DNA from: Glaucostegus cemiculus
Lineage: Eukaryota
Assembly: GCA_976551045.1 (NCBI GenBank)
Contig: CDPCPM010000239.1
Coordinates: forward strand, 1,674,001 to 1,738,000
Direction of reading: 5' to 3'
Length of the DNA: 64,000 nt
Shown here: positions 5,007-52,300 of the stretch, piece after piece
Numbering within the stretch: the first letter of the stretch is position 1
Layout of the letters: every line of letters starts with the position of its first letter
The notes under the pieces: model-generated
What the model was told of the DNA's origin: nothing
The model's database searches: none
The model's input: the letters and a program-made list of their open reading frames with translations, nothing else
Made by a program: the position numbers and the translations under genes

Positions 5007-5168
5007 ACATCTTTTCACCACCTGATGTGCCGGAGGAAGGCCTAGCCCGTCCAGTCGTGGCTGGGATTGTTGCCACCATTTGCTTCCTGGCGGCAGCCAT
5101 TTTGTTCAGCACTCTGGCTGCTTGCTTTGTGAACAGGCAGCGGAAGCGGAAAAATAAGAGAAAGAGGG
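5007..5168 (+). CDS. IGSF9B: IGSF9B exon: transmembrane helix and basic stop-transfer (DIFSPPDVPEEGLARPVVAGIVATICFLAAAILFSTLAACFVNRQRKRKNKRKR)
   Basis: Acceptor ttctag| and donor AGGG|gtaagt. 162 nt, phase 1 to 1. A hydrophobic stretch followed by a K/R cluster, near-identical to the recalled IGSF9B TM. Confidence 0.96.
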
Positions 5169-13138: not shown

Positions 13139-13184
13139 ATCCTCCTCTCTCAATAACACACTGCCGAAAGAGTGTGGAATCCCC
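13139..13184 (+). CDS. IGSF9B: IGSF9B short exon (DPPLSITHCRKSVESP)
   Basis: Acceptor ttctcctccag| and donor CCCC|gtaagt. 46 nt, phase 1 to 2. Matches recalled DPPLSITHCRKSLESP. Confidence 0.93.
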
Positions 13185-13947: not shown

Positions 13948-15624
13948 ATCTTCCTCAGGAAAGGTGAGTCCTGAAAGCGTCAGAACACTCCGAGCTCCAT
14001 CAGACTCCTCTGAAGATGCTCAAGCCATACATGCCAAGATGATGAGTCCTGGCAGGGAAAGGGAAATGTCCCTGTACAAAAAGACAAAGAGAGCAATAAC
14101 CAGCAAGAAGTACAGTGTCTCCAAGCATGAGGCTGAAGCTGATGTCACTACCCCTATCGAACTTATCAGCAGAGGCCCTGATGGACGTTTCATTATGGAT
14201 CCCACAGAGATGGAGACATCATTGAAGACGAGGAGGATTGAGGGCTTTCCTTTTGCAGAAGAGACGGAAACTTACCCTGAATTCCGGCAGTCCGATGAGG
14301 AAAACAATGATACACTAACTCCTACTGCCATTATGGGCTTGAAGTCTCAGCTTTCACCACTTTCATCCAGTCAAGAGTCATTCTTACAGCCACCAGCATA
14401 CAGTCCATCGTTCCAGAAAGTAGACGAAAGCATGGGAGGCTTAGATGCCAGACTACAAGCCACCGGTCAGGCCAGGCGACCTGCTAAAGGTTACTCTCAA
14501 AGCCAGTTTTATGGCTATCTCAGCAGTAGCTCAGCAGACCAGGATGGTCAGCCATTTTACATGCCAGATATCAGTCCCCTCAGTTCAGTGATGTCTTCAC
14601 CTCTATTACTTGCTGAAGGACCTTATGGTCATCCTACCCTCCCTGCAGATCACGGAGATCCTGAAGGACAGCATTTGGTCACTTCCAGTAGCACCCTGCC
14701 TTTGACTCACACTCCAACCACTATGCGGTCTCCTGAACCATGGAGAAGGAAGAAGTTGTCTATAAGCAGCATTGAAAGCTCTCCGGTTATGTTCTCGCAC
14801 CATCAAGAAACACCTGAGAGTACACTGCCAAAGGCTGGTCTTCCAAGGGGTGGCCCCCCTTCCTCACTCCAGGTCTCAGCACCCTACCACAGTGTGCTGC
14901 AACTGGAGGCACCAAAGAGTCAGACTGGCAAAGCTCCCAGCAAAAGTAAAGGATCTGCCTCTCTCTCTCAAAAACATCCACATCAACCTATGCAACAGAC
15001 CAGCCACGGGCAGCTAAAGCATACCAGCCATGGTATAAGTGCACCCACATTGCCTTACACTGAATCAGCCAAACAGGCTGGTCCCAGTGGCACAAGCACA
15101 TTCAGTCTGGACACCAGGTGGTACGAACCAAGACCCAGGCCCAGACCTAGCCCTAGGCAAGGCAGAAGGACTGAGGCTAGTTTACACCAGGTGGTTCTAC
15201 AGCCTTCCCGGCTCTCCCCTTTGAGTCAGAGTCCTCTGAGTTCCCGTCATGCCTCCCCAGAGATCTCATCCCGTCCACGGCCTCGACCCAGTGTCATGCA
15301 GCCCTCCCGCGGAATCTTTCCTGCAGGTATCTCTGTGGAGATGTCTGAAATTACCCTTCAGCCTCCTGCTGTTGTTAGCTTATCCGGAAGGTCCTCTCCG
15401 TCCTCCTCACCAGCACAAAGCAGCACTGCTGAGCAGGGCAGCAGACGAGGAAGCCCCAGTTATAGACCTCATTTGGCACTGACACCTTCGACAGGCAGCT
15501 ACACAGGATCCCTTTCTCCTACAACAGGGCGCAGCGAGTTTTATAGTCAGATCCCTTCCCAAAGGAGGAGAGATGAAGACATTCCTCCTTTTGAACACCC
15601 ACCTTCACACTTATCTACTTCAGG
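13948..15624 (+). CDS. IGSF9B: IGSF9B large cytoplasmic exon (1677 nt, Ser/Pro-rich disordered tail)
   Basis: Acceptor ctctcag| (phase 2) and donor TCAGG|gtaggt (phase 2). The 554-aa ORF has conserved blocks TTPIELISRGPDGRF, RRIEGFPFAEET, LDTRWYEP, LHQVVLQPSRLSPL and EMSEITLQPP. Confidence 0.96.
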
Positions 15625-25768: not shown

Positions 25769-28700
25769 GTATCACATCCCAAAAGTCAAAACCCTCCCTT
25801 TGTCTACTGAAACTTAAGTGAAAATATGTAGCCTACCAATTATAAACCTTAATTTTCAAATTCCATTTTTACCAGGGTTTCTTAGACTATTGGCTTAGAG
25901 GGTTAAATGTGTGGGAAGACTACTGTAAAACTGATTGAATTTTCCACCTAAGTCAGAACCTGACTGAAAATGAGCTGTCTAAAATATAGCACACCTTCCT
26001 GATTAAACCATCACATTACAAAACCTAGAAGATCCTTGGTTACAGTGTCCCATCACAAAGATGTAATTTTGAAAGCATCCCCACATTCAAAAACCTAGCT
26101 GAACTTCCTCGGCAAGATTATTTCTTAATCAAATATTTGAGTTTCCTAATCAAGCATTTGAGTCTTGTCTTGTCTGAGAAATCTTCGCATTTTTAGTCTT
26201 GAGATTCCTCCTTTTTATTTGTCACCTGAAATAAATTCATTGAAAGCTGGGTATTATTTGAAGCCGGGCCTGTACATCAGTTTTGGAGAAGTCTTGCACT
26301 TGCTAATCAACAATGAAATCAGTCCTTTTGGTGGAAATGTGGAAATATTGGTTGGGTGATCTTTGCCAAATTGGGTGCATATTCTGCTTCCTTATTGTAG
26401 CACTGACTGATACTGTGCACTAGGATTTATTATTCTGGATTTTAAATACTGATAATGATCTTCCAGATCAGTGGTGCCAAAATCCATGACCACTTGTTCT
26501 TGTATATACTGTTCTACAGTTCTTATCTGTAAAATCATCTACCTTTAACCATGAAAGTTCAGACATTGCCACTTTTTTTTACATTTGACTGGTCATCAAA
26601 TTTTTAGACTCCTTGATAAAGAACTGAAAAGAATGCTGTCCCTACATTGCATTGAATTTAAGCAGTATGTGTAATGGGTTTAACAGGATATACACAGCAC
26701 CTGCAGTTAGCAAGTTATCAGCAAGATGGGGCTTACTTTTTGGAGACTTGATCGAGTGCTGTGTATAGTTCAGTCATTATGTGTCTTTTCTGTTAGTATT
26801 TGCTATTTTCTCAATTCCTACATTACATGTTTATGGAAGTGCTATCCTCCATGAATCAGTATGCAAGGAAAAAACATAATGCACTGTGATGATCACGTAA
26901 TTCTTCTTAATTTTAAAGTGTGGCTAAAATAAAGAATTAAATAATTGCTCTCATCAACAAAAGAGCTGCAGATTCAATTTTGAATTAGTTGGCGATGTAT
27001 TTAAGGTATCAGAAAGGAAACTTATGTCATAGCAATCGCTCATACCAAACCAACTGGATGCACCACATGTGCAGTCAGAAAGCCAGAACGTTTAGCGCAA
27101 GTCTTTGAGGTTCCTTGCAGAGAGCTGGGAGAATTTTAATTATTTACTTTATTTTGAGTGTAGTAATTGGCTTTCACTTGGTAATACCAAGTCTCTTAGG
27201 CACAGTATCCAATATGCAATGGTAAGGTACAGAATTAGCAATGACATTCGCCTTGTGCGCACTTTTTCCTAAATAGACAGATTGATAGTTGCCTTGTACT
27301 CTTAATATACTGGCATAAGTATTGCAATAACTGATGTCAGATTAACTTGCTCTAAACACATATAGTCACTTAGTATTTATCTTTGGCTATATGTTTCAGA
27401 AACAGCTGTTGTTCCATCGCAAAGGATGTAATACCAGTTGTGTTGCTTCTTTACATTTGGAGATGATATTTAGATTTATTTTCCATCTGCTGCTTACATA
27501 ATTGTTTCTGTGCCAGCCTTTGCCATTAAGTATATGCAACAATTCAGATGTAAAATATCAGGAGAATAATCTTCAATATGGAAATTTAAGCCTCGGCATC
27601 TAAGGAAAAAGGGCTTGAATAGAAGCCCTGAGATATGCCCACCAATCTTAAGTCCGTACTACAAGGTCCTTTGCTCTGAGTGGCATGTTATTCAGAATTG
27701 TTGAAATAACTGCAATTCAGCCCTGGGCTGAATTCAAGCTCAAGGGGAACAGTAACCCCAGAAATGGAAAGGTTGTCTTCCTTTCCTTGCGTGTTAATAG
27801 CAACAAATGCAGTAAATTTTAGTGATTTTGAACACAAAGGACATAATTCCCCTTAACATTTTTGTATTGCCACTGAAGAATGTGAACCTCATGCTGGTTG
27901 CTGTCAGGGTTGGAAGCAAAACTATGAAGTAACAGCATTTTTGGACCAGTGTGGGAGGCAGTGTAATAATTGTGTGTCAACTTGACTCAGCATTGTTTCT
28001 TTGACTCCTCATAAGTGCAAAGAAAATTTCTTCCCATTTTGTTGATGAACACAGTGGGAAATATATTGAACCTCTGCAAGTGTTAATTAATTAAGGATTC
28101 TAGCTAATGAAGAATGAATTGGAATCATAAAGGAAATTAACATGATTTTTTTTATGAAAGACCATTGAAATGGAAATGAACGATGTATTGTATTGGATAG
28201 AGCTCTTGAGGAACCATAGAAGGAAGCTGTACCTTTACATTTGTGACTCCATGCACTGTGATATTCTCTTCTTTTCTTCATTTAAGGAGGGAATGTCAGG
28301 AAAAGTACTTTGATTTAGTATTGCTTATTTCATTTAGTCCTTTTCTACAATGTGAGCTCCTGGAATCATGGCTCAGTTCTCATCCCATCATTCAGGGTGT
28401 GATAACGCGAGCTGGAAGAGTGATGATAATCAGTTTTGAAATGTTGTAACCCAAGGCTGCCTGAAGTTCTCAGTCACCACACATGTGTTCCTCTTTTCCC
28501 TTTTCTCAATGAACTCTATCCTGAGTGAGCGGCAGGTAAAGCTGTTATGTCTCGTCATTGTGCGTGAGAACTCTGCAATAGTAAAAATGACAGTGTCTTT
28601 TCGTTTGTTCAGGTTCCTGTTTCATTTTCATTGATGTCAGATGCTGTGTATGTGGAACCCACTGACATTATTGAGCATTCTTCTGGTGTACCTGAATGTC

Positions 28701-28778
28701 ATCATTCGTTTAATGAATTTTCTTCAAGTTAAATGGATCATTCAGAGTCTTAACTGCTTTGTTTTTGATTAATCTCAG

Positions 28779-28824
28779 CTATCACGGCAGTGTTGTTGTG
28801 ACCAGGTCCTCAACACCTCAATAG
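28779..28824 (+). CDS. IGSF9B: Candidate alternative (stop-containing) IGSF9B cassette or terminal exon: (G)YHGSVVVTRSSTPQ*
   Basis: Branch-like cttaac, a T-rich tract and ctcag| acceptor, and a TAG|gtaagg donor. In frame with the phase-2 end of exon 13948-15624. No transcript evidence available. Confidence 0.5.
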
Positions 28825-28991
28825 GTAAGGGTTGAATCCATGTCTGAAAGGGGGGCAGCAGGTGGGGCTTTTAATCTCATTTTTCCTTTAAAGGGGAATA
28901 CAATACTTGGAACCTTCATTCCCCTCCATCATTCCCTTCATACTCAGTGTTGTTACTTTTATGTTTTCTGTGTTATTTCCTGTTTATTCCC

Positions 28992-29203
28992 NNNNNNNNN
29001 NNNNNNNNNNNNNNNNNNNNNNNNNNNNNNNNNNNNNNNNNNNNNNNNNNNNNNNNNNNNNNNNNNNNNNNNNNNNNNNNNNNNNNNNNNNNNNNNNNNN
29101 NNNNNNNNNNNNNNNNNNNNNNNNNNNNNNNNNNNNNNNNNNNNNNNNNNNNNNNNNNNNNNNNNNNNNNNNNNNNNNNNNNNNNNNNNNNNNNNNNNNN
29201 NNN
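28992..29203. other. Assembly gap (212 N)
   Basis: Run of n characters. Confidence 1.
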
Positions 29204-29657
29204 GAAGGGCATGGAACGAGGCCTGAATTTCGTCACAACCTCAGTTGCTGCGGGCTCTTCCTGCTTCAGGTGGGTTGCAAACTGGTCAGAGTTTTCTTTC
29301 TTTTATGTTGTCCTTTTTAGCCACCCCCCCCCCCCCCACCCGCCCTCGTGAACAGTCAGAAATATTCCTTCCTGAGCGCAATGAAAACAAACAAAAAACC
29401 ACGATGAGGATGCTTATTTCCTGAATGGTCAGTGTTCAGGGCAACCATGACAGAAAACCAGCGTTACCTATTGGCCGACTGAATGACACTACATTGTCAA
29501 TTTGTTTCAAACCTTGTAACAGGAGAATGAGACAAGTTGCTCAGTTCGTTCAAGGAGTCAGCTCAGACCCGTTGGACAGGATGCCTTCGTTTTTTTTTCC
29601 TGTATGATTCTGTCAAATGCAGTGGACTTATGACTAGGTTCTCTGCTGATGCTGCAG

Positions 29658-30002
29658 CAGAGCAGTGGCACAGCTGGTAGAGCTGCTGCTTCACAGCTCC
29701 AGCGGCCTAGGTTCAATCCTGACCTCCAGTGCAATCTGTGTGGAGTCTGCACATTCTCCCGGTGACTCCATGGGTTTTATCCCAGGTGCTCGAATTTCCT
29801 CCCAGACCCCAAAACTGTGTGGGTTGATAGATAACTTGGCCACTGTAAATTGCCCTTGATGTGTAGAGGAGTGGTAGAATCTGGAGGTTGTTGATGGAGA
29901 TGAGGGAAGAATAAAATGAGATTAATGTACGGTTAGTGTAAATTGATGTTTGATGCTCACCTTGGACTTGGTGGGCCAGAGGTCCTGTTTCCTCTGAATC
30001 TA
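29658..30002 (+). mobile_element. HE1/V-SINE-like SINE with recognisable Pol III boxes
   Basis: A box tggcacagctgg (29666-29677), B box ggttcaatcc (29710-29719), V core and CR1-like tail. Confidence 0.88.
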
Positions 30003-32001
30003 ATTATGAACAATATTTGAAAAAAATAGCAATGTCTTATAAAAGCACAGTGCAAAACCTCCTAGTTACCAAGTGGTAATATTTCCCCAAATACAAACAT
30101 TTTTCTCTCAACATTACACTATGTAGTCTGCAGTTTCACATTCAAATAAGATAGTAGTTTGAAGTTCAAAGTGATACTTTAAGTGAATAAGTAATTAAGA
30201 AAGCAAAAATTCCTAAAACAAAACTCAAATCTACCTGAATGGTGGAGCATAAACAATGGAACTTTTTTAATGCAGTATTTACACAATTCAGTCTGCCATT
30301 CCTGAAGACATGCAGGGCTGGCAGTAGTTCCTCAAAGCTGTTACAATCTGTCACTGTTTTGCCCAATTTAGTACCAGGCAAATGGTTCAAAAACTCCTTG
30401 CTGCATTTTGCTTTCTGATTTCAAGTATTTCAGGTATTAATAATAGTCATCAACATCTTCACCCCGATTTAAATTGCTGCTCAGAATTACCTCAGTTTCT
30501 CATGACATAGCTCACTTTCAATCCACTTGGACTGTCGTCTTTTCTGTTATTCCAATACAGAAAAAATTGACTCAAGAAACAAAACTCTTCTGTTATTTAA
30601 AGTTCAAGTATTCCCCTTTAAAGTCACATCTGCTAAAGCAATGCATGCTTTCGCTAGTTGAACATCGTTGCATTTGTCTTCTGAGTGACGCAATGTGATT
30701 GTTCCTAAGCATTTTCCCTAATCCTGCCATTCCTCCCCCCTGTCAGCATGGTGAAGCCCATTATAGATGAATATTTAAGTTGTTAGACACATACAAGTGA
30801 TGCTCTGTTGCACAGCAGTGTAATCATTTACTAACCATCATTAATTTCATATTGCAGCAAATTTAGGGAGTGTCAAAGAAATTCAGTGGAATTATTTTGA
30901 ACTGATGAGATGATATTGTATAAACTAAATAAAAAATCATAAGTTTTCTGTGATTGATGGGTCCATTGAAAGTTGAAAGGATTTGCCTTTCTGTGTCAGG
31001 TAATCTACTTTATGGAAGAGGCATAGATTTTACATAAGCAAAGAATTACTCCTGAAAGTATCCTCAGGCCCAATTGGTAATTCAGCCTGCAGCAGAGTTT
31101 ATTATTGTCCTACTTCACTTGAGGTGAGAGCTATTTTTCAGTACTGCCAAAAGGCTACAATCTTGTGAAAGCAGACCAACCCATCCTTCCAGTTAAATAA
31201 CAAATCACCCATATTATGTAATGAAATCAAAGAAGAGGGAGTGGACGTTGTCATTTCACCTCTGAAATAGGCTTTTGAATCAAAGCCAAAATGATGAATG
31301 ATCGCCACTCCAATAGTTATGACAGGAGTCAAGATAGTGACAGAAACCTTTTTGAAGTTTGCCTCCTACAATGAAACTGGCTTGTTACTAGCACGGATTT
31401 TTTTAATTGCATGTGTAGCAGTTGATAATTGCATGCTTTGTCTTTATATTTCATTTCTTCAATTGCACATCTTTATTGCAGGCACTATAGATGTACTATG
31501 CATCTGAAAGTTTTGTAAAGAAGAATGAACTGTACAAGTAAATGTACATGCATCATTCTCTCCTTTGCTAGCTAATACATGAATGAGTGCTATTGGTTGG
31601 AATCCAGCTAAATATCCTTTCAACTTGTAACCTATACCAGCAGATTTAACTTCTGGGTTTTGTCAACAGTTCTCCCCTTCCCTGTTGGAAATTAATGAGT
31701 GAACTGTAAGCATGGTGTTTGATCACAAACTCAGTAGTAAAAAGTGATGCATAAACAGTTAAATTTTCTTGAGACTTTCAAAAGCTTTAAAATAACAAAA
31801 GTATGGTTCATATTGCATATCATTGGCTAGTAAATCTGATGCTATGTGATTGATAGGTCATTTTTCTACTCCCGTTCCCTTTCTCCTGTCTTTAGCAAGT
31901 GTTACCTGTTGTTGGGATATGGTTCAACAGGTGGTAGCTGCTATTTAGTGTATTGGCAGACAGACTTACCTTCACATATATGTTGAGCAGTGAATGTCAG
32001 C

Positions 32002-32637
32002 AGTCTTCTGAACTATATAGATCATCACAAGTAAATCTGTTTAGGTATCCACATATGGGAGTCAATATTGGCCATCTTTACCTTGTATTAATGGGGCCGA
32101 AGAAGCCTCAAAATAGTGTTGGTAGACTTACCATCCCCCTGAGATGAGAAATTGAGGCCATCCAACCTTTGAAAATGGACAAGAAACCTCCTGGAAATAG
32201 TGAAGAACAACAGTGAATGGAAAAATTAATGAAACTGAATCCTGATAAGCTCCCAGGATCTGATGGCCTGCATCCCAAGGTCTTGAAAGAGGTGACGATG
32301 GAGATAATGGAAACAGTGGCCACCATCTTCCAAAATTCCACAGATTCTAGAAATTGTTCCCACAGGTTAGAAGATAGCAAATGTAACTCCACAATCAAAG
32401 AAAGGAGAGACAGGGAGAGTTAATAGGGAACCACTGACCGCTGTGCCTTGCATCATTTGTAGGGAGCCTGTTAGAATATAGTAGTCTTCTGGACCACAGA
32501 GCATCACAACTAAATATGTTTAGGTTCCACAGATGGGAGTCAGTATTGGCCATCTTTACCTTGTATTAATGGAGTAGGAACAGCCTCAAAATAGCATTGG
32601 CAGACTCACCATCCCATTAACCTGTGAAAATGAGGCC
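32002..32637 (+). repeat. Diverged direct repeat of about 155 bp (32002-32159 and 32483-32637) flanking a CR1 RT fragment
   Basis: Both copies share atgggagtca(a/g)tattggccatctttaccttgtattaatgg and agcctcaaaatag...agact(t/c)accatccc. Confidence 0.9.
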
Positions 32638-33548
32638 TTTTAAAGGTTCGAAAGTACCACATCCACAGGGTCTCCCTTATCCTATCAGATTTCAGTTTCA
32701 TTAATATTTCCAATAGCATTTTTTAACAAATGCTAATTTCCTTCAGTTCCTCTTTCATCTAGCCTCTTGTTCTTCATTATTTCCAGGTGGCTTCTTGTGT
32801 CTTTGGAGGGAATGCAGCCCTGGCTATCTTTTCCCTTGCTCATTGAAGCCTTGCACTTTAGATGGACTTGGGTCTCTATGTACATGTATCACTAAATATT
32901 AGCAGGCAGACATAGCAAGCAACTAGGAATGCAAATGTTAGCCTTTGATGCAAGAGTATTTGAACACAAGAATAAAATGTTTTACTGCAATTATATCAGG
33001 CCCTTTGATTCTGCACCTGAAATATTGTTTACACATCTGGTTTTATTACCTGAGAAAGGATATATTTGCAAAATAGGAGGTGCAACAAAGGTTCACAAGG
33101 CTGATTTTTGGGATGGTCGGGTTTATCCCATGGGGAGTATAGGCAGCCCAGACCTATACTCTCTAGAGTTCTGAAGAGTAGCATCTGATCCTATTGGAAT
33201 GTACAAATTTCTTACAGACTTGGTAAGACAGTTGCAGGGATAGTGTTTCCTTGTCGTGTTCAGAAACAAGGGTCAAAATCTGAAAGTAAGGGGTTGGGGC
33301 TTCAGGACTGAGATGAGGGAGAATTTCTTTATCCAGAATGTAGTTAGTCCTTGCAAGAGGGCAGTGGAAGTTCCATCACTGACTGTATTCAAGACACTGA
33401 ATGGTAGCTTTTGGCATGTTAAGGAAATCAAAGGATCTATGATGAGTGCAGGAAAATGCCACTGAGATAAAAGTATAGTTGTGATCTAATTGGATGATGG
33501 AGCAGGCACAAGAGGACCAATGGCTATCCCTGTATCTATTTCTCATGT
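32172..33548 (+). mobile_element. Rearranged CR1 ORF2 fragments and 3' end
   Basis: ORF 32217 reads LMKLNPDKLPGSDGLHPKVLKEV. ORF 33256 reads GQNLKVRGWGFRTEMRENFFIQNVV. An inverted piece lies at 32682-32804. Confidence 0.85.
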
Positions 33549-34184
33549 TGGCCATTTGATAAATTCAAGTACTGTCTACCTCTAAGAGGTGTAGATGTCT
33601 TTAAATGGCATCAGACTTGCTTGGTTGCCCCTCACTGGGCAGGTTGCCACTAGAATTTAGTCATATTGATAAGGCATCTCTTTTACTTCCTAGATGTGCC
33701 CGTATGATTGATCACATCCTGGCTGCACATTTCCAAATCTGGGCTTGAAGACAAAGCTTTAATAAAAGCCCTACCCCACATACTGCCATATATCAGTGCC
33801 CCATTAACTAGTATATTTCACACAATAAAAGATCACCTTCCTTGTGATTTACCACGAACAGTGCCCTAGATGATGTGATGTTGTATTCCACAGCCATTTT
33901 ATCATTAATGCAAATTTCTGTGCTGAACAAGAGGAAATATATAAAAAAAGAAAGTCAGCCTTGATTAAACCTTTGATTGAGGGACCACTGATAATGCACC
34001 TCAGCAGCAGAGAAGCAAGACGTTTTATTACAGCATAGCCTACAAATTGGAGGGGTCTATTTAGTCCCAATTAATAGATTCTTTGCAGCAGGCTGACTGA
34101 TATTTTGTTTGTCGGCCTGCCACTCGAAACTCAGCAGGCAAGGCCCAGACCATCTTGGAAGAGTTACAGGCAATATACAGTAAG

Positions 34185-34468
34185 TGGCCAGTCACTTAAA
34201 AATGAGGTGCATGGAAATTTCTTCTCTCAGAGGGTAGTGAATCTCTGGAATCCTCTGTCCCTGAGGATGGTGAAGCCCAGATCATTGTAAATTCTTAAGG
34301 TAGAGTTAGATAAATATTTGAAAGACAGAGGAATTGAGAACTATGGAGAACTAGCACAAAAGGGGGGGGTTGAGGGCAGCATAGATCAGACCTGATCATA
34401 TTGAATGGTAGGGCAGGCTTGAGGTGTCTGGTGGCCTACTCCTGCTCCTGTTTTCTCATTTTCTTATG
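34185..34468 (+). mobile_element. CR1-type LINE 3' end
   Basis: NFFSQRVVNLWNPL in ORF 34105..34290, and tail ggcctactcctgctcctg. Confidence 0.88.
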
Positions 34469-34557
34469 CTACTGATCAGAGCTTGCACAAGGAACTCGGC
34501 TAAGTTTGCAACTAGGCTCAGGTAACAGCACTGGGGTCATAAGAGGATAGAGGAAGT

Positions 34558-34741
34558 TGGAATTGGTTTATTATTGTTACATGTACCGAGGTACAGTGAA
34601 AAACTTGTCTTGCATCCTGTTTGTACAGATCAATTTATTACACAATGCATCCAGGTAGCACAAGGTAAAACAATAACAGAATACAGAATAAATTGTTAGT
34701 TACCGAGGAAGTATGGTGCAGGTGGACAATAAGGTGCAAGG
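34558..34741 (-). mobile_element. 3' UTR of a Rex1/Babar-like LINE
   Basis: aattggtttattattgttacatgtaccgaggtacagtgaaaa is homologous to 58738-58920. Confidence 0.75.
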
Positions 34742-37700
34742 GATAGTGGGAGAGTGTGGAAAGGTAGGTTCAGTTTCAGTTGGTTGGTGGGGGGCTGGCA
34801 GTTGAATTGGGATGAGAGTTGCCAGCCAGAAATCTTGAAGCGGAGGGGTGGGGTTTGGCAGTCCAGTCAGTCACCTCAGTTGCTGGCAGAGGCTCAGTGC
34901 AATCTACATGGATCAGTAGTCATGTAGAACAGATGGGAGATCAATACTCAGGTGGGGGCATTGTTGTTCTGATCAGGGATCAGTGTGTTAAAGGGAGGGT
35001 GTTTAGTTGTAGCTTGTGGATCAGTAGAGGGAGGTCAGATGAGGATTGCAAGATTGGATGGGATTTGGGTGTTGTTCATGGGAGAACTGGATATTGGCAT
35101 GCCCAAGGAGGAGCTTTATTTCTCAAAGCTGGTCTAAAATCTACTCAGACACATTCCCTTTTAAAAATTGCTGAAAGAGATGAACATTGTGGGCTTCAGT
35201 ATGGGCAGCCCACCAACTACACATTCTACACACGTACCAACGAAAATTTTGGAAGTAATGTCCAAGAATGTCGTTGGATGCCCCTGCAGCTATTTAAACT
35301 CCTCTAATGCAATGAGCCTTCAGGTGCATAAAGGATCTGGAGAGAAAATTGTGGACTTAACAATCTATGTAGAAAAGTAGTGGTCTGCATGGTGGTCCAT
35401 GATTTTCCATTGTGCTTTGTTTTTCATGAAAATTGAACAGTGTGGTGTGCAGAAACAATGCAATCTGTAGACAGTGCTAGGGGAAATTATTCATACCAAA
35501 TTAAATGACAGGAAATTTACTAGTCTGTGTGTAAAAATATAAGAAAATGTCTAGCATGCAAAAAATGCAAGAAAGTGGAATATCTTAGACAATTGTAATC
35601 ATTCTCACTATAAGCTTAAAATTTCCCTTATTTTGATTTCTCATCCCCATCTTGAAGCTTTCTTTGCTGTTCCCCAATGAGAAGTTGGAAGAGGATCTCC
35701 TGTACAATAAACTGGAAGGAATGATAAAGTGTTTTATTTTCCATGGATATCATCTGCCACATTGATGTACAGTCCCATCTGAACATAGGCTAGTGTGTAA
35801 TAAAGTTGTTTTGTGCTCACCCAGTTTAGCATCCACAGGTTTGAGTTGGAGTTAACTTGTGCAGAGTCGGCTGTACTTCATTGGGAAGTCAGGGAGATAG
35901 CACGCAGTTTACCATTTTCCTTGACAGATTTGTGCTGGAGGATTGAAAGAGCAGGTTGTGGAAGTACCATTAATATAGAAAAGCAGGTGCTATCCGGAGG
36001 CTTGTCTCTCATAACAGAATAGGAGCAACTCTACATTGCCTCTAAATGGTGAAGCATGACTCTGTCAGTTCAGTTGCTGAATGATTACTTGCTCTCAGCA
36101 CTGTCTTCCCTCACCTTGAAAAGCACACTCAAGAAAGTTAAAAGAGTACATCCTCCTTTTGGCAATCCTATTGCTAATCATACAGAGATTAAAAGTTTAA
36201 ATTTACCATGTTGTAGGAATACAAATAACTTTGAAATGGTAAGGAAATTTGTCAAGCCACTAAAAGCTCCATTCAGAGCTTCAGCTAAACAACGAAGAGG
36301 ACAGGGGCATGCACAGGAAATGACATTGACCACTTTCATAGGGACATGTTAAACACATGCATTCATCCTTAAAACGCTCAGTCCAGATTGTGGGGCCATA
36401 TACTGTTTCTCTCCCCACCACTTTCCCCTGTTTAAGCCACTGGAACTGGGGAACTCTGACTCAAGCTTCTAACTTTCAAAACCACTTTTTCTAGGTTTGT
36501 ATAGTTAGTTAGTGGTTAATTCTTAAACTTCATGATTGCCTTCTGAGTGAAAGTAAAAGAATCGACATTAACCAGGTTTCTTCCACAGACTGAAGTTTTC
36601 AAGGCAACATTTGGCCCAGAATGTCGGCTAAGCATTGAGAGGCATTCATAGTACATTTTGGATAAATTATCCATTGGGTTTCCATACTGGATTTGATGAT
36701 GTGAGAATAGTATACTCAAAAGGAAACAATTGTGGCATAAATTGAATGGATTAAGGTTCCATTGAATACTCAATGTAGCCTGTAACTAAATCTAGTTATG
36801 ATTCTGATGCTGATGAGGTTCTGCTTGAATGAATGAATAAATAAATGCCTCATCTAAAAAACATAAATGCCGTTTTGTGTGTAGAGGAAAAAGGAGTGAG
36901 GAAATCAACTATTGTTGTTATTTGTATCGCATTTTAATTGGTGGTGCTTGGAAGAATCCATGAAAATTAATCCCATACACGAGTTGCATTGTCCATTGCT
37001 TTAATCTAACCTTTTATCACAGTTTGGTGCTACTACACAAAGAAATTGTTTGAGATCCCCTAAATGCTTTTCTTAAAATCCTCTAGCCATAAATATACAA
37101 CATAAAATGGTAATCAAAATCAGTGGAATTATTCATGTGGCTTTATGCTTGCATATTCATATTAATACTTCTCACAGTTTTAAAGAGGAACTATTCACCT
37201 CATTACTCTTAATCACATGCAGTCCTGTGGGGCAAGAAGAACAACTGGCTACCTACACCAGCAGATAAATCCAATTAAACACAATCCTTAAATGATAAGT
37301 CACATATATTTTTCAAGACATGATTTTCTCATACTGAAGTATCTCTGTTCCCCTTAGTTACAGACTGCATTTCTCCTTCATTGCCTTCACCCTGGTGCGC
37401 AAAAAAAAAGATATGATCTCTGAAGGATTCATTAACATCGCTACAGGATTACTCGCAAAATGGATATGATAATTTTCAACTAAAAATAATGGTCTCAAAT
37501 GAGAAGTGTTCCCACTTGTGTTTTGTGTAAGAATTAATGTGTCGTTTAACAGCTGTGTTACAAATGGCAAACAGAATTCTTCCTCTAAATATATTCTATG
37601 CAAGATATATATCAGATGTGTTGCACAGAAAATATTTAATATAGATCAGTTTCCAGATTTTATATCTTTTAATTATTAATCTTTCTTGTATATGCTATGT

Positions 37701-38569
37701 CTTTTATAATGTAGCTGAACTTTTTATACCATAATTATCTTGTTTATTAATAGATCTACTTTTCAAGATGCCTATTTTGAGGTATTTGCATTTTTATATA
37801 CTAATATGAGGGATGGCCTCTCTACATTGATACAACAAGATTGTTGACAGGATATGAACTACATAAAGTTACGTGCAATCAGTAAGGTTCAAACTAAAAA
37901 GTGGCATGCATGATAAAAGTTATTCATGGATGTTGTGCTTCATGTTCTTTTCTTAATGGGAAATTATTTCTGGAGACTAATGTCATTGAAGCCTTACCAA
38001 ACTATATCAAATATCTAACTCTAATTTTTGGAAATACCACTGAGATCTAGGCTTATCAAGCTTCCATATAAAGAGAATCAATGTCTGGGACGAAGCACTT
38101 CTGAAGTGCACAATCTCTGGACAATATTAATGCATTCAAACAAAATGCCAGTTTACATGCCCCTGTTCTATATCGCTCTTTGAACAGTGCTGGGTGATCC
38201 CTTGGTCTGCCACATCCAGTGAATTAGATTAAAATTACTCCCAAACATCTGGACTAGAATTTATTCCATGGCTACCTTCACTAAATGACTGATATAGCAG
38301 CTTATATACTTCCTGTTCTAATACATGTTTCTATTGAATGGAAGTGAATTTTAGAAGTGGATTACAATGTGGAGATACTACTGTACTGTGCATTTAATGC
38401 AAGTGACCAAGGATGGCTTCAATTCAACCTCTTTTACAACATCCCATTTACCCTCCAAATTCTTCCACCACTGCACCATCATATCTCCATGCATTCACAT
38501 CCAAAACATTCAATTTTAATTTACTCAGTTTATGAAGCTAAATTTAAACTATTACGAAGTAGAATATTC

Positions 38570-38790
38570 CAAACAAAATACTGCAGATCCTCAATACTGG
38601 AAACAAAATAACTTTTTTATCATATAAAAACAGAAGGTGCTGGAAAAACTCAACGGGTCAGATAACAAGTGTTGTTGACCTGGAATATTATCTGTTTTTC
38701 TCTCCACAGATCCTGTCTGATCTGCTGAACATTTCCAGCACTTTCTCTTTCACTGTATATTTTAGATTTCCAGCATCTGTTTTGTTTTGG
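38570..38790. mobile_element. Internally deleted palindromic Penelope-like element
   Basis: gtgctggaaaaactcaacgggtcaga pairs with tctgatctgctgaacatttccagcac. Same family as 875-1282. Confidence 0.7.
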
Positions 38791-39193
38791 CTTTCTGTGT
38801 CTTTATTATATTATAGAGTATGGTGTTTTTGAAAAAGTAACCCCTTAAACTACACTGAAAATCTTTCAATTAAAAATAAATCATGCTGAAATATTTCTAA
38901 TTGACAAATACATAATTTAACTTTAATTAAAAATGTCATAACTGATTGCCATGACATCAGCACTAGAGCAGAACATTAACCAGAGAATTGCCTAAGATTT
39001 GTAACATTGTTTATGTTAGTCTGTTAACAAAATTAGTTTTCATTATAAAATTTGCGCAGTTACGTGTATTTCAATTTTGATTAACTTTCAGGCTATCCCG
39101 TTATGTATGAAATAGACCAAAATGTCAGGAAAGACCCAATGAATCTGAAAGTGAAGATGTTCTGTCTAATTTCCCAATCTGTCAATTTGGATT

Positions 39194-39268
39194 ATAGAAT
39201 AGTACAGCACAGAATAGAACAGGCCCTTCGGCCCGCAATGTCTGTGCTGAACACGATACCGAATTAAA
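39194..39268 (-). mobile_element. Very short CR1/SINE 3' tail
   Basis: tacagcacag...aacaggcccttcggccc, as at 4636 and 8820. Confidence 0.65.
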
Positions 39269-41609
39269 CATAAGTGAAAATTCCATTAAGTACAGCTGAT
39301 GAGGACATGATCAGACCAGGATTGGGGCTATACAAGTTGTGTGCACCACAACCAGGAGGCAAGCATAAATCTAAGCATTGGACATCAGATCAGCTAGACA
39401 GTAAAGGTAATGGGACAGATCCTGCTAATTTTCAGCCAGCAATTCTATAGAGAAATGGTGGCTAACAGCAGTGTGCACATCAGCATGATCTGGACTACCG
39501 CACCATGCAGTACAGTGTGGAAGAACAGAATGCCTTGGAAATCGGACAACCTCTCCCTCCGTCACAGGCCATTGAGTGTAGGGGCAGTCCTTGGTGTCTT
39601 GAGCTGAGGGGGTCAGACATACTTCATCTGAACAAGGTCACCGGCCTTCACTAAAAAGAGTAAGTTTACCCAAGGTTTTGGTTTTTTTCTTTTATCACCA
39701 TATGTTTATATTTTAATTAATTAACAGGAACTTCATGTCTTTATAAGTAATTCTTTCTGAAATAAACTTTATTTTTTAATTATTTACATACATTTGAACA
39801 TTTAAAACACTGAATGTGGGGGAGGGGACTGAGGGCAGGCCCTCGGGATGCGCTACCTGGAGACTTGCTCATCACGGCCGTGGAACTGTGGCCTCACGGT
39901 CATTGACAGAGTCGCAACAGGTAAGAGTGGCTCTGGGGCTGGTGCAAAGATCGAGCACAGGAAGCAGGTCAGATCGAGTATGATCCAGCCCAGTGTTTCA
40001 TGAAATGTCTGTTGTAAGTGCTCTTCTCCATTTACTTACATTTATTGCTTCACAAAATTTCTTTTCCTCCTCTTTAGGTTCCTCCACAGCACTTGGCATT
40101 CCTTGCTGAGGGGCAGGGTTGGCAAACTCCATTCAGGTATCTGCCCATGCTCCTCTGTAACTTCCCTGTAGGTGAGGTGCTCACAGTTGGCTAGTGGTGA
40201 CACCCAACCTATCACTTCACTGATGCCCCACTTACCTGTGTTCTCTCCCACCACCACCACCACCTCTCCTTGTCCTACCCACTAACAGCCCGACCAAGTT
40301 TGTGAGTTTGTATGAACAGTTGTGACACCAGAAATGGACCTGGTCACTCAGTGGCATAGATTGTTCTTTCATCTTTTTCCAAAGAGCCCTGCACTAAAAT
40401 TCAGCCAGTCATCATAGGCAAACAGTTTTGACTAAGGAGCTTTCCAAGCACACTGTCAATGCCATGAGGCTGACCAGAAGCCTGGCAAAATGCTCCATAT
40501 ATTTCAGGAATCAAAGATGAAGTTTTAATGGCTCCAGTAAATGAACTAGAAGGTTGTCAAATAACCTTTGAGCATCAATCTCATTTTCTTGTAATCTCTT
40601 AAAACGCAAGCAGTAAAAAAGGTGGAAACATAATTATAAAACCATTATAAAACAGGCTGATTCTTCACCATGAGCAGCTTTTGTGTTCTAGCAAATGGCC
40701 AATTTCATCTTTGTTCCAATAATCAATGTTTTCATTATATGGAGAGAGTGCTGGCACCTTGGGGATTAGTGTAGAGACATTGAGGTAAGTTTTAATCCAA
40801 AATTCCACACAGGAACAAAATTCCACAGAGGAAATCCATGGAATCTGATATGTTCCAATCAATCCTACCCCACATCAACTTCAGTTCTGCAGCATGCATC
40901 CAACACAACAGAATTACACACTGAAACTATAAAGATAATATTCAGTTCAGAAACATGAAATTTATTTAACTCTCTTATTTTGAATTTGTGTTATTTTTGA
41001 GTGTGAATCTCCCTCTTTCTTGAATATTTCTTCCATCCCCTTCTTGTCGTGTGCTGCCCTTCAACCAAGAAGGGAACCTCATAACCTACTCTTTGAATTC
41101 CACCAGTGCTGTTTGAAGCCCTGGAGTAACCCAGGAATGATGATTCCTCCTATGATTGTAGGGCCATCTCTGATCTTCACACAAAAAGGTTGTTCTTAAT
41201 TGTCTTCTGATCATTAAAGGACCATAGTAATCTCAAACTGGGGTCAGTAGCTTTACTATCTGATTGACATCAATGGCCTTTTATCTAAAACATCTCCCTG
41301 TTACAAGCAGCAGTCTCCTTTTAAAATAGAATTCAAAGTTCAGGTGGCTACCAACCCACTAACTCCAACCTCCATGATTGCACCACTCCCCGTCCTCTGA
41401 GCCCTCAATCTAGCAATCCATTTGCTTAATGCTCTGCAGTATCCCCGTCAAATTTATATGAACTTGCGGCCCCAAAGGCATAGGGCAATGCAAGCCAGTC
41501 TGTCAGAGTGGACTGCTCAATCTGTCATCTAAAAATCAAAATTGACCTCAGTTTCTCACCATTACTTGAGCCATGATTGTGAGGTAGTCTCCAGTAAATC
41601 CAGTATGGG

Positions 41610-41825
41610 ACCAGGAAAAATTAATGTACCCAGAGTGATTAAAAAATGGAGTTGAATATGTGGAATTTGACAAATATATTTAAAAGAAAGCTGGATGCTC
41701 ATGATGGAGAAATAAGTGAATGCTGATAGGTTTGAGTGAAGTTGGGATGCAGGAGGCTTTTGTGGAGAAAAACACCATCTGGGATCATTTGGGTCATTTG
41801 GCCTGTTTCTGAACTGTGAATACTG
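41610..41825 (+). mobile_element. Decayed CR1 3' end
   Basis: atttaaaagaaagctggat and tail tggcctgtttctg. Confidence 0.6.
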
Positions 41826-44657
41826 TGCTATTCCATCTACTGGGGCTTTCTCAGGATAATTCTTATGAGCATGATCCCACACATTGTCATTCCACGGGAT
41901 TAGCACATGATTGGTTTAAAACCTCTGAGAGTATTTTGCATTATGTAATTAATTATGAATTTATATTATGGTCTTAATGATGATGCTGCAGTTAAGCAGG
42001 AAACAAAGAGAGGACAAAGCAGAAAACAGGAAACTCAAAGCAAGCATACGTATTCAGCTACATTTACAAGCCAAAGTTCTATAGTGCTACAAGTGACAGG
42101 GAAATTCTAAAGATCAGTTGCTGGTGGCACTCAGTTCTCTATTTCTGGTTCAAAATAGAATTGTATATGTGATAATGAGTATGACCAGCAGCAAATACTC
42201 TTAGATGTTTAGCACTAAGACCTAGATAAACTTCTCCCCAGGATAGTCCATTAACACGCTGCATTCAGGTTGATTAAGGCAATTGGACCAAGAAAGAGAC
42301 AGGGGGGGGGGAGGAGGCTTAAGGGTGGGGAGAATGCAGAAGTCATGCCAATGAGAAGCATAGCACAAAATGGCAGTCAAGGTTGTGTAATTGGAGGCTA
42401 GTGTTGAACATTGAAATATTGCACTGCTGCGGTTTCACGTCAGCTGGAATTCTGGTCAGCAAAGGAGGCTGTCAGATCTCCGAAATGATGCTCTATTGTT
42501 GGGCTTGAAGAGAAGTACTGGGTTGTCATGCAAATACATCAACATTTGAAATCTTTCTGTGCCACCTAGTAGTTTGTGACATGTTAATATTAATGCAGTG
42601 GCTTTTGCTACAGAGCTTAAGTTAGTTTACCGTTTTAAGTTCCTTACCATCACAGCTTTAATGGCAGACACTTTGTAATGAACAGAATAACAGTCCATTG
42701 AAGCAGACTGTTGTAATCCACCTATCATTTTCAATTCATATTTAATTGAAAATTATTAGATAAATAAAATCTCCATTTGAGAATGAAATCAATGCCGCTA
42801 AGTTTAGTGCTTATAACACAAGTGGTGTGAAATAGTTCTGGATAAGATCTAGTATAGTTGGTGGTAATGTTGGGGTTACCCAGCATTGTGTAATAATATT
42901 GCTTTCATTGCAGCCCTGTCAACCAGACTCCTGACCTGTCAACCTATGATCACAGTTCATTTTAACACAACTATGTCAATGTGACACTTAACCTACATTG
43001 TCTTTCAATAATTTCCACTGCTTTCTTTGACCCAAACCCGAGCTAATTGCTAATAATATGCATACTCAGTCAATAATTTCTCAAGTGCTTTGAGTCATAT
43101 GCTATAGGATCATACATCTGTTTGCTACACATTAGGCTGTGTGACCTCAGGCAGAGGACAGGAGGGAGAAAATAAGAAGAGAGAACTCAGCCCAGATATC
43201 CGAGCAGCCAACCACCGAGGACGGGCTGAGGCATCAGTTCATCCTTTCATTTGAGAAAATGTTTTGCATGATTGGAAGCAGTAAATGAATGAAAAAAGGA
43301 ATATGTAATTAGGGACATTTAATTTTCAGAAAGAAGCCAATGAGTGGATTTATAATTTATAGCAGCAGTCTATCACCATAATTCTGGTTCAATCACTTTT
43401 ATCATTGTAGAGATTGGAAATTTTTGGAATAAAAGAATAAAAAGGTGTAGAAAATTATATCTCTTCTTACCTATTTAAGGGAAAGTGGGCCTGGTTCCTC
43501 TAGATTATGGACCTTCAATAAACATCTAACCAGTTTTTTTTTCTCTCAGTGTCCCTTGGAACCACCTAAAACTAACTGTTTATTACACATGTAAATGCTG
43601 GACTAAGTGTCTGCTTTCAGTGCCTGCTCAGGAATTGGTTCCAACCAGCAGAGCAAGCGTGGACCTTTCCCATTTTAGGTGGAGTGTTCTTCCCATCCTT
43701 TCACATTTATTCCCCACCTTATTACTGGTGACCCCCACCTTCTGTTTTTGAACAACTTCAGGATATTTCCATGAAGCCAAATTAAATGTGGGGGTATAAA
43801 AGGCTTTGCAAGCTTACCCAGATTAAGTGGCCAAGGCCTGAAGTACAATTTGAGGTGAGCCTCAGACTTTGCTCTTGGGATACGTGCCAGAAAATGGGCC
43901 ATGAACATTTTCCACCCTCATGCTCCTTCCTCTTTACAGAGAACCAGCATCTGACAGAGTGCACAGTGATCTGGACTTTAGTTTGCCGGGTAGAGTTTGA
44001 GATTTAATGTTTCAGTTCCCTTTGTGGTGACTTTTGATCCCAGATTTTTTTATTAGGCCAAAATACCCATCAGAAGACAAGCATCTCCCATGAAGTTGAA
44101 GCAATAATCCTGTTTTTTTTTACAAAAATACTTCACTTTATGGACAATGTGCCAACACAGTTCATATAAAGAAATGAGAATGGGATTTGAATCCAGATGT
44201 TCAGACTACAGTGGATTAGCAGTCAACTTCTTTAACCTCTCGCCCATCTCTTCATAACATTCATCCAGTCATTCCTCTGCACTGCCATGTGACTTTTTAA
44301 AATCAGACAAAGCCCAAGTTACTGGGAATATATCATTACATTGCTCTTTTTTGGATAGGATGGCCAATCTGGCCCAAGGGAATGAAGAGACTGAGAAATA
44401 TAAAATTACAACACTTTAAAAACCTAAACGCATTCAGGCAATGTGGCTTGAATATGATACTGTTTAGTATATCTTGGATCCGGTCTGTCCAAACAAATGG
44501 TTGAATTTTGGTTCGGGCACTATAGTCAACATTTTAATAAGCAGATGTTCTACTATAGCAAGTTATTATTCAGTGATGATGGATAATTGCAAGCCAGACT
44601 AACTGTTAAAATTGAATTTTTTCCCCATCCCCTTTTCTGTTTCTCTTGCTCTTGCAG

Positions 44658-44779
44658 GAGGCCTTCAGATACACATGGTGCGGCTGCTGTACCTGAGAGC
44701 TTCGAAGGACTGAGATATCAACGTGTGAGAAAGCCCAAGAAGGCAACCCAGCTCCCCTCAAAACCATGCCGAAAAAACA
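44658..44779 (+). CDS. IGSF9B: IGSF9B penultimate exon (RPSDTHGAAAVPESFEGLRYQRVRKPKKATQLPSKPCRKN)
   Basis: Long pyrimidine tract with ttgcag| acceptor (phase 2) and AACA|gtgagt donor (phase 1). Matches the recalled long isoform motif AAAPERLEALKYQRIKKPKK. Confidence 0.88.
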
Positions 44780-45289
44780 GTGAGTGATGTGATGAACTGA
44801 AATGGGGCTGAGCATTAGATAACTTTGAAGAGGAATGAATAAGGCATTCATATCTTCCACAAGTTCTTCTTCAGAGATAGGTTCAATGTGCTTTATATCT
44901 TTTGGATAGCATTGATTTTAAATGCTATTTATTTTATTACATCTGAGCACTTAGACCATTCATATAGCGTCCTTTTCCATGACACTATAACCCACTGACT
45001 AAACCAACGAATGCTTTAATGGATAATGCTTAATGCTCCATTTCAAAGAGAAGGCTGATGACAGTTTTGCAAATGTTTCAGGTGTACATATAACATCCAA
45101 AACTGCCATTCATAGATTTTAGTTGATGTTGTTATAATTACCATTACTGCCTTGACCATAAACTGGAATTGGTGGAAAAGTAATAAAGTTTATGGCAAGA
45201 ACTAAAGACAATAGCTATGATCTTCCCAGTAATTAGTTGCAGGAAATTCCTATTGATCCAGCCTGGGTGGTGAAAATTAGAGACAATGA

Positions 45290-49372: not shown

Positions 49373-52300
49373 GTCTCATGCAAATGTTTTGACTTCACAA
49401 GTGATGGTAGTCTCTCATTACTTCACTCAAGGTACTATTTCATCTATGAAAATAAATACCAAGAGGTGATTTGACTATCTGGGCATCAGTACCTATAATC
49501 CCGTCCACATTTATAATCCTAGAAATCTAAAATGCACACAAAGGGCACACAACACTTGTCTCTGCCAGTTCTTTCCCACAAAAATTTAATCCCACAATTC
49601 TGATTTTACTCCTTACTTTTCACTAATTTGTATACTTGTCTACTTTTCAAAAAAAATTGTTCCTCCTCGACTATTAAATATTCAACAAATCTTGTAATAA
49701 GAATTCTCCACTCTTTCCTTATTCTCTTTATTGAAATTTTATATCAACAACCTATCTTTACCTACTCCCCAGAAAAAGGAAGTTGTCTTCCCTACAACTG
49801 TCACTAATAATTTGAAGATTATCCATTTAATTCATTCTTAGATTCCTCTGGTCCAGTGGAAATACTTTCAGTCTCTCTTTTACGGATCTTTATAGATACC
49901 CATTGAATTATTCTTGTGAATTTAGTGTAAACTGACAGCAATGAGTATTGACTTCCAGCAAAGTCACTGGATACTGGCCATCAGGAAAACCCTGGCATTT
50001 TCCACCTTCTAAAGTTGAAGCCTATACCATTAGTATCCTGGATGGAAGTTAGAACAGGCTTCAAGCTAAGAATATTTTTGTTATAGAAATCTCAGAACCA
50101 TTCAATGACCCATCAAGTTCTCAGACCAGCAGGCAATAATGATCCTGGAGTGGATTTCAAGAATACGAAGTCAGAGTACCTTTATATAAAAGCAAAACTA
50201 ACAAAAAAAATGGCTTATGAAATTGTTGTCAGACCATTTGAAAGGTTGGCTTTGAAAATCTTTTTCTTTAAACCCATGATGTGACTGGATTAACTGGAAT
50301 AATTTCAAGATGGATTTGACATGGTCAACTGTCATTGCAACAAAAGACAACTGAAAGAAGCACGTTTCATACTGCAGATATGTGCAATGCGCAATATCAT
50401 GCAAGCTTAGCTTTTAACTCATTATGTATGCTTCTGCCTATCAATGTCTTCACAAGACTAACATACCATGAAATTGCATCTTGCTGACATGTGTTGTGTC
50501 CAAGGTCAACCATTCTGACGTTGTTGTTGTAAACTGTGTAGAGCTTCTCTGTTGTCCCTGAAATAGATTTTGGTGTTAAATTCAAGCTCAGAACAAAACA
50601 CTTTGCTGTGCTACCAGGATAGTTCTTTTTTGTGTATTTGCCACATTTCTTGTTGAGCATATTCATTTAATATAGAGCTCCAAGTAACTTTATCCTGTAG
50701 ATCTGTGAGAATCTTGGGATCGAGCAAATTTATCACCCATAACCACCATTAAAAAAGACATTTTCAATCCCCACCTCTGGGCTAGCTTGACTGATTACAG
50801 TCAGGACTTTTTATCTCGCCTTTATATTCAGACGTTCTCTGTACCTTCCCCAGAGGCATTTTTATCTGAATATCAAACCTTTATCTGAAACAAGTAGCAG
50901 AAATGCTACCACTGAAAGTTTATTTAACGTTAGTAATTATGAAATATGTGTAATTAATTAGTGCCAGAATACAAGCTAGACATTGCTAAGACAATTATGC
51001 ATCCTTTCAATACCTTTGACCAGGTTGCTTCTTTGAAGAGGTAAAAAGGTAATCAGATTTATGCCTGGTTTAGCAGAAGAAATCAAAATACTAAATGCCT
51101 CAAAAATTTAAATTTTGACCACATCCTCCTTAAAGCCAGTCAGGTAACCATGGCATGATACCTCTCTGAGGAAAGACTAAGCAATTAAGTACACAGATCA
51201 TGTTTTGCAGGCCAAGGTCATATCACATATATTGTAAGCACTTGGTTGCTCTTCACACCTTTGGTGATGCAACCAAGGTCTGTAAAATAAGGTATTGTGC
51301 AATAAGCATGAGATCATTTCATCCTTTCATATTTGCTGAAATACCCTTGCAAAAACAAAAATTCCAAATTACCAAATTTAAGGAACTGCAAATACAAAAT
51401 TGCTCACTTCAAACTCAGGGTTCAGATTTGAAATCACAATAGAAGCTTTTAATCAAACAACATGACTGCAGATAAATACAATTCAATTTATTAATGATGT
51501 GATTTAGGTATATTGAAACTTGTGATCTATTTCCATTTACAATTCCATTTGCACTATTCTTTGATTTTCATGAGATTATCATTAAACTCTTTGATTTGAA
51601 CTGTGATGCCATGGCTTAACAAAATGAATTGCCTTTTCCTTATTTTTATCTTTTCGTATTGAATCTTGCAATCTCATCAACCAGTGACTTGATTTGGTGC
51701 TTAGTGATATGGACAACTCATTCGTTACAACCAAACTTCTAATAAAGTGGCTTTTCTATGTCATTCTATACTGTGGGAAAATAATCAGGAGTATTCTAAG
51801 CAGAGAAAATGTATCTACATAACTATTGACTTGCACAGAATTTCTATATGTGAATAATTTATAAATAGTGGCAAAAGGTAATGCTTCCTTTGAGATAATC
51901 TTTGCTATATTTTGTAATGTAGGTGTTTTGGAACTTGCACTTGGGACCTGAGTCAGTCTGAAGTATTCAGAAGCAGTATGAGCTACCAGTAAATCCATCA
52001 ATTAGTATCTGTTCTTCCTGATATAGCATTACTATACTTGTGTATTAGTCATCACTGAGCACTATTGGTAGAAAGCCAATAGCATATATCTGGGCTGGAT
52101 TGTCAACTCATAGCCTGGCAGTTACAGCGGTAGATATTGGAAATTTAATGATGTTTCGGGATAGAAGGTGGGCAGCATAGTGGGGAAGGAAACCAGCCAC
52201 CAAACCACCAACTTTCCCCTTTCCCCAGATGCAGGTCCATCACCTTTGCTGAGCTCCGATGGGACCTGGAATCTCCATGTCTTTTGGGTTGGCAGACAGC

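Follow-up and report, generated by a model that had tools for sequence, protein, structure and literature searches.

A 46-nt stop-containing alternative exon in IGSF9B, conserved across jawed vertebrates and predicted to truncate IgSF9b

The stretch of the Glaucostegus cemiculus genome analysed here (64,000 nt; "the window") carries, in the 3' part of IGSF9B, a 46-nt alternative exon that ends in a stop codon. Judged by comparative sequence analysis this exon is genuine, the decisive evidence being that the same peptide ends orthologous proteins. It is conserved across jawed vertebrates, and its isoform is already present in automated annotations. Judging by the distribution of this ending, the exon arose no later than the divergence of cartilaginous from bony fish, over 400 million years ago. 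What we observe in the genome itself are the splice signals and the stop; the upstream junction, the peptide and the loss of the regular tail are observed in annotated orthologues. The reading that we favour, with slightly better than even chances, is that of a jawed-vertebrate IGSF9B cassette that would truncate IgSF9b and make its mRNA sensitive to decay.

IGSF9B is present with its 3' part on the forward strand of the window, where exons at 3016-3286, 4500-4584, 5007-5168 and 13139-13184 are followed by the giant exon for the cytoplasmic domain, the penultimate exon and the last coding exon (Table 1). All seven are collinear on one strand with ray and shark IGSF9B. The giant exon is 92-97% identical to its counterparts (96.6% over 559 aa for Hemitrygon IGSF9B), and in the last exon 75/75 residues are identical to those of two Hemitrygon records (P0139 and P0140). 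By sequence alone, this match and an unusual protein end shared with Mobula (TTLLK) most likely indicate a myliobatiform ray, not a shark.

Table 1. Features of the 3' part of IGSF9B in the window (positions are those of the window).
Feature	Position	Length	Strand	Remarks
Giant cytoplasmic-domain exon	13948-15624	1677 nt	+	Phase 2 end; donor GTAGGT
Acceptor region of 46-nt exon	28750-28778		+	TTAAC, TGC, T-rich tract, CAG
Stop-containing alternative exon	28779-28824	46 nt	+	YHGSVVVTRSSTPQ encoded after split Gly codon
Donor GTAAGG	28825-28830		+	No gap after stop codon; candidate, read from sequence
Six YCAY, possible Nova sites	28838-28941		+	Starts 28838, 28877, 28916, 28926, 28929, 28938
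Second alternative exon, same intron	40078-40136	59 nt	+	Frameshifting; stop 66 nt before last junction
Third alternative exon, same intron	43940-43989	50 nt	+	Frameshifting; stop as for the 59-nt exon, at 66 nt
Penultimate exon	44658-44779	122 nt	+	First 41 residues of long tail
Alternative last exon remnant	51211-51290		+	Frame-shifted here; spliced frame ends ...RSVK
Last coding exon, long isoform	54694-54923		+	75 residues, ends ...TTLLK-stop

The 46-nt exon lies in the 29-kb intron that separates the giant exon from the penultimate one (15625-44657). Its acceptor, CTCAG, ends at 28778 and is preceded by a branch-like TTAAC at 28750-28754 (-29) and by a TGC at 28755-28757 (-24). The TAG forms the final three bases of the exon (28822-28824) and doubles as the exonic AG of the donor; a donor that abuts the stop without a gap is what would be expected of a cassette. 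When the giant exon, which ends in phase 2 at 15624, is spliced in silico to 28779, the reading frame gives G, then YHGSVVVTRSSTPQ, then the stop, and once both downstream introns are removed in silico this stop stands 122 nt before the last junction. Were the TAG to be ignored, the frameshift of 46 nt would reach another stop 12 residues further, inside the next exon, so that truncation is independent of the TAG. The exon, its acceptor, the TAG, the GTAAGG and the YCAY positions are all as an earlier note on this DNA had placed them, and the 122 nt exceed, on paper, the distance of about 50 nt that it invoked for decay.

We then asked how unusual this combination of signals is within the intron. 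The 46-nt exon is the sole full pass among the 350 YAG..GTRAG pairs (21-250 nt) that it contains. The acceptor thresholds were our own (pyrimidine content of at least 0.7, an AG-free tract and a branch motif): 12 of the 350 pairs pass the first two, and adding the branch motif leaves the 46-nt exon alone, at a pyrimidine content of exactly 0.70. Neither tandem nor dispersed repeats overlap the exon, and Rfam gave 0 matches on 15600-56000. A 212-base assembly gap (28992-29203) starts 167 nt past the donor and may conceal regulatory elements. We also note an internal CAG/GTCCTC in 28779-28805 that would yield a 27-nt in-frame exon with the long tail retained. The corresponding 9-residue insert is found in two fish gene models (P0063 and P0359); the donor of this version is weak, and the insert may reflect an error of gene prediction. 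Since the entire exon is present in orthologous isoforms, we discarded the idea of a recursive splice site at TAG/GTAAGG.

The proteins used for comparison came from a giant-exon search (212 proteins, the 120 listed being either IGSF9B-named or unnamed with the same domains), two cluster look-ups and a tail search. Together these gave 366 fetched proteins, which are a sample, each large protein cluster being represented by 15 members. The pattern of the 14-residue tail, Y-x-G-x-x-V-x-T-x5-Q, was found at the end of 42 of these 366 IGSF9B-family proteins, in 37 species: three sharks, bichir, sturgeon, gar, 11 teleosts, axolotl, turtle, alligator, owl, five squamates and 11 mammals. The same 14-residue length and final Gln are seen in 42/42 pattern-matched tails, a regularity to be read with the fact that the pattern itself sets the length and six columns. 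In the three sharks the tail is identical to the peptide of the window, which matches the annotated isoforms P0126, P0128, P0133 and P0143 letter for letter, as the translation proposed in the earlier note predicted. The check for conservation in relatives that had been suggested there came out, at the peptide level, in favour of the exon, with tail and frame held from sharks to mammals, and the term "hidden" no longer fits an exon that automated models carry in 37 species.

Relative to bamboo shark, tail identity is 11-13/14 in seven ray-finned lineages and 8-9/14 in ten tetrapod lineages; between shark and pike, dragonet or sturgeon it reaches 13/14. For the other exons, compared with bamboo shark in 17 lineages, identity is 0.32-0.44 in the next exon, 0.48-0.58 in the last and 0.58-0.66 in the giant exon. 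Skipping (long) and including isoforms are both annotated within one species, for example in Chiloscyllium. Ser takes the place of the Gly before the tail in four mammalian records, a sign of an alternative donor further upstream. The tail-bearing records listed include none from human, mouse, zebrafish or a batoid, in a sample that cannot speak for absence, and none of the batoid proteins listed (15 of 21 cluster members) has the 14-residue tail. The tail-focused protein search, whose sensitivity is low, gave 8 matches among 11 candidates, one of them new (P0249), and no jawless fish or paralogue. A metagenome scan with P0070 matched 25 stretches and confirmed three loci, all of the Ig region and on short contigs, with no usable DNA.

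The 46-nt exon had been presented as a possible third C-terminus, which is an undercount: the C-termini of IGSF9B number more than three and also include a read-through form, two frameshifting exons and an alternative last exon. Read-through past 15624 meets an immediate stop after ...TSG, and the matching x-x-G motif ends 26 of the 366 fetched proteins, a few of these being fragments. The 59-nt exon encodes residues identical at 20/20 positions to skate and Mobula isoforms (P0136-P0138); its acceptor AG is directly followed by GT. The 50-nt exon agrees at 16/17 residues with an Amblyraja isoform (P0135). In the remnant of the alternative last exon, 15/19 residues match P0122 in another frame, and the stop of that old frame is gone. 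Eight records, from horn shark, bichir, sturgeon, gar and tarpon, have this exon with a T-x-V end, which could serve as another PDZ ligand. Turtles, lizards and a caecilian (P0254, P0255, P0270, P0276, P0280, P0327, P0273 and P0278) have still other short ends beyond the giant exon, which imply further truncating exons or donors in tetrapods.

Inclusion of the 46-nt exon swaps 116 residues (41 from the penultimate and 75 from the last exon) for 14. A class I PDZ ligand has the C-terminal consensus S/T-x-hydrophobic. HATLL is the end of 184 of the 227 long forms counted; the window's long form ends instead in TTLLK-stop (54906-54923), as it does in Hemitrygon and Mobula (four records). Neither this long form, with its final Lys, nor the short tail, with Gln at the end in 42/42, fits the class I consensus, and the extra Lys would abolish the canonical ligand in these rays. 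The claim that inclusion removes the PDZ region therefore holds for most other vertebrates and probably not here, and release from the scaffold could likewise be at stake in most vertebrates, though probably not in this species. That the exon is unchanged here despite the absent canonical PDZ ligand favours a role beyond removal of that ligand. In mouse, the last 75 residues of IgSF9b include the PDZ-binding motif, and MAGI-1 was identified with these residues as bait; S-SCAM is bound by IgSF9b through PDZ4-5 and bridges it to neuroligin-2 (PMC3678166).

In the reading that we favour, inclusion of the 46-nt exon would leave the protein just 14 residues beyond the giant exon; the GTAAGG donor would be spliced to 44658, placing a junction 122 nt downstream of the stop. 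This would likely commit most such mRNAs to nonsense-mediated decay, which would in turn lower the supply of full-length IgSF9b. The 50-55 nt rule for decay-triggering stops is set out, together with the precedent of Robo3.2, in the accessible part of PMC13542418, and the distance of 122 nt found in silico exceeds it. By analogy with Robo3.2, some short protein would probably be made before decay. We further suppose that regulation would take place in neurons, and that the RNA signals and the truncation would be under stronger selection than the peptide.

The main alternative, which we regard as possible if somewhat unlikely, is a stable short IgSF9b whose 14-residue end has a function of its own and whose mRNAs largely escape decay. 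The composition of the tail bears on this in both directions. In 18 lineages, seven of its 14 columns do not vary at all; like the 13/14 identity between shark and pike, dragonet or sturgeon, this would also suit a functional peptide. The seven variable columns, however, take radical changes (H/L/R, V/E/K, S/L/F/H/Y/P), with 13 of their 15 steps reachable by one base. The mean BLOSUM62 score of these 15 steps is -0.13; the three coding exons stand at +0.27, +0.37 and +0.08, and single-base changes drawn at random at -0.59. Windows of 14 columns that are as radical as the tail make up 12% of the giant exon, 0% of the next exon and 7% of the last exon, so that the test of substitutions is not significant, and the pattern leans towards constraint on the RNA more than on the peptide. 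The short protein is annotated as coding in 37 species, and in four of them (Chiloscyllium punctatum, C. plagiosum, Mauremys reevesii and Anolis sagrei) it has two transcript accessions, which would imply several 3' ends, some of which may avoid decay. Against a dedicated peptide, the ends STPQ, SSAQ and SPSQ fit no class I PDZ motif, and the protein is truncated at the same place by unrelated peptides, through the two further frameshifting exons and the read-through stop. With several unrelated cuts falling at a single place, the truncation as such would seem more important than the peptide, in line with the decay-sensitive cassette that we prefer.

RNA reads were considered next. The giant-exon run search listed 24 runs, four of which were mapped on 28500-45100 at 85% likeness. 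Repeats close to 29.7, 34.5 and 39.2 kb dominate the mapping tables, and high-copy repeats at 29600-30100, 34040-35147 and 38472-39579 draw very deep coverage in each of the four runs. Neither 28779 nor 28824 is touched by any of the joints listed, 15 of the 50 in these repeat-dominated runs. The raw RNA run X23 (about 18% read) has a depth of 3.97 in the 554-nt bin with the exon (28500-29053), or about 15 reads' worth of bases. First-mate strands there stand at 0.41 vs 3.56, which points to sense RNA, assuming the usual stranded library. The bin with the penultimate exon has a depth of 0.34, about 1.5x on that exon. For the spliced 46-nt exon alone to account for the depth of its bin, about 48x would be required, so that the signal cannot be that exon alone. 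The coverage, which reaches up to 2.3 across unique intronic bins to 38.5 kb and is near zero in most bins past 39.6 kb, is more easily explained by unspliced or nascent, retained, read-through or terminal RNA than by clean splicing of a cassette.

The same coverage could be taken to mean that the exon is an alternative last exon, its acceptor used, its donor ignored and its transcript polyadenylated downstream, with no decay. Proteins alone cannot separate terminal from cassette use, and X23 has one-strand coverage of 2.3 and 1.5 in the bins of 30162-31269, around an AATAAA at 30928, before falling to 0.03 in the next bin. Yet a consensus donor adjoins the stop, the bin nearest to the exon on this side is low (0.54 in 29054-29607, the Ns of the gap included), and coverage returns at 1.84 in 37364-37917, as nascent or retained-intron RNA would; all these counts are tiny. 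We consider terminal use distinctly unlikely.

The other runs bear mainly on neighbouring features. X1, flagged as probably DNA, has zero depth in the bin with the 46-nt exon; one of its contigs lies on 44657-44777 alone. X2 has a depth of 1.24 in that bin (equivalent to about 15x on 46 nt), to which we give no weight since the underlying piece is not listed. One X2 contig joins 43773-43986 to 44655-44781 and reaches about 170 nt upstream of the acceptor of the 50-nt exon, and the donor at 43989 therefore appears to be used in the organism of X2. Furthermore, X2 contigs span 39965-40258, across both boundaries of the 59-nt exon, with four differences each, which indicates that the flanks of this exon are highly conserved. 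Intronic stretches within 30263-31171, about 1.5-2.3 kb past the 46-nt exon, are about 88-91% conserved in X2. Motifs in the downstream intron include TGCATG (an RBFOX motif) at 30642, 31408 and 31430 and ACTAAC at 30830, in addition to the AATAAA.

As to candidate regulators, a YCAY cluster downstream of an exon is the position for Nova-enhanced exons. The six YCAY of Table 1 are present as the earlier note had placed them; the cluster itself is mild, since at least six YCAY are found in 3.4% of 28,584 intron windows of 121 nt. Four YCAY lie upstream of the 46-nt exon, constitutive exons have one to three downstream, and the 59-nt exon has eight in its next 121 nt. The counts for both alternative exons hint at Nova, in a pattern that is mildly suggestive and that we noticed post hoc. 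Control by SRRM4 had also been put forward, on account of the UGC in the polypyrimidine tract. In the portions available of the respective papers, fly exons are described as combining a strong branch point with a UGC near the 3' splice site (PMC8797185), and neural microexons are defined by a length of 3-27 nt (PMC7935315). In the window, 38% of 1012 intronic YAGs and 6/6 constitutive acceptors are preceded by TGC, so that the UGC does not discriminate in favour of SRRM4 control of the 46-nt exon, and at 46 nt the exon falls outside the microexon range. Igsf9b is absent from the supplement files searched of PMC5989265 (12 of 15 files), PMC4387716 (five of six) and PMC12626424 (12 files), which are not complete event tables, and from two small supplement files of PMC4930328. 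The event may be catalogued in other tables or in a splicing database like VastDB.

We hold it highly improbable, and largely refuted, that the exon is a pseudo-exon that arose by chance or that it is a conserved element spliced only as noise: no junction read is among the joints listed and the SRRM4 and Nova motifs are weak, but the peptide, frame and stop recur in independent models from 37 species, sharks and primates among them, and Rfam offers no RNA family in 15600-56000 to explain the conservation.

In the IGSF9B literature that we searched, which contains few subscription papers, no published description of the exon was found. The available parts of PMC3678166, PMC13042764, PMC13240960 and PMC10839115 do not describe it. 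Within what is accessible of the first, Woo et al. 2013 give shorter mouse IgSF9b variants by accession only (NM_001129787, termed alternate, and NM_001033323), and the section on DNA constructs contains only the 1441-residue IgSF9b and its deletions (PMC3678166). An ALS paper reports an IGSF9B exon-skipping event on TDP-43 loss, for which the part available has no coordinates (PMC13042764). Conserved stop-bearing alternative exons are a familiar class of mechanism, and databases already contain the isoform. What the exon adds is a defined target in IgSF9b, a gain for specialists in IgSF9b and the synapse more than for general biology. IgSF9b organises inhibitory synapses via its C-terminal S-SCAM link, according to the parts of PMC3678166 at hand, and the exon would remove this link and probably lower the mRNA.

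A more far-reaching version of the cassette reading, which we think unlikely, would be a neuron-regulated switch in place since the shark-mammal ancestor. By analogy with the way decay times Robo3.2, inclusion would release a short-lived burst of adhesive IgSF9b that does not bind S-SCAM, and the adhesion subdomain would be uncoupled from neuroligin-2 and gephyrin at inhibitory synapses. If this were true, stingrays, which have lost the canonical PDZ ligand on both long ends, would offer a natural test of dosage vs scaffold release.

The closest likeness to the form predicted here is found in the annotated short IGSF9B isoforms of Chiloscyllium (XP_072449276.1 and XP_043532700.1), Heptranchias (XP_067827125.1) and Macaca nemestrina (XP_070931957.1), which share its junction position and peptide. 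These are automated models, and in the three sharks the 14 residues are those of the window. The exon also resembles SRRM3/4 neural microexons in being short, in the UGC in its tract, in a branch-like motif and in its deep vertebrate conservation, and differs from them in its length (46 nt vs 3-27 nt), in carrying a stop and in shifting the frame. Robo3, like IgSF9b, is a receptor with Ig and fibronectin III domains. The likeness to Robo3.2, as far as it is covered in the accessible part of PMC13542418, extends to a neural receptor isoform with an alternative C-terminus and a decay-sensitive mRNA, the last being a prediction here; Robo3.2, however, arises by intron retention and its role in timing has been shown, whereas the IGSF9B form uses a separate exon and is known from sequence. 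Finally, with the conserved poison cassette exons described in that part of the same source (PMC13542418), the IGSF9B exon shares a short length, conservation, a stop and a downstream junction more than 55 nt away. Unlike typical poison exons, it lies near the 3' end of the gene, and its product, which would lose 116 cytoplasmic residues but neither the ectodomain nor the membrane anchor, could function.
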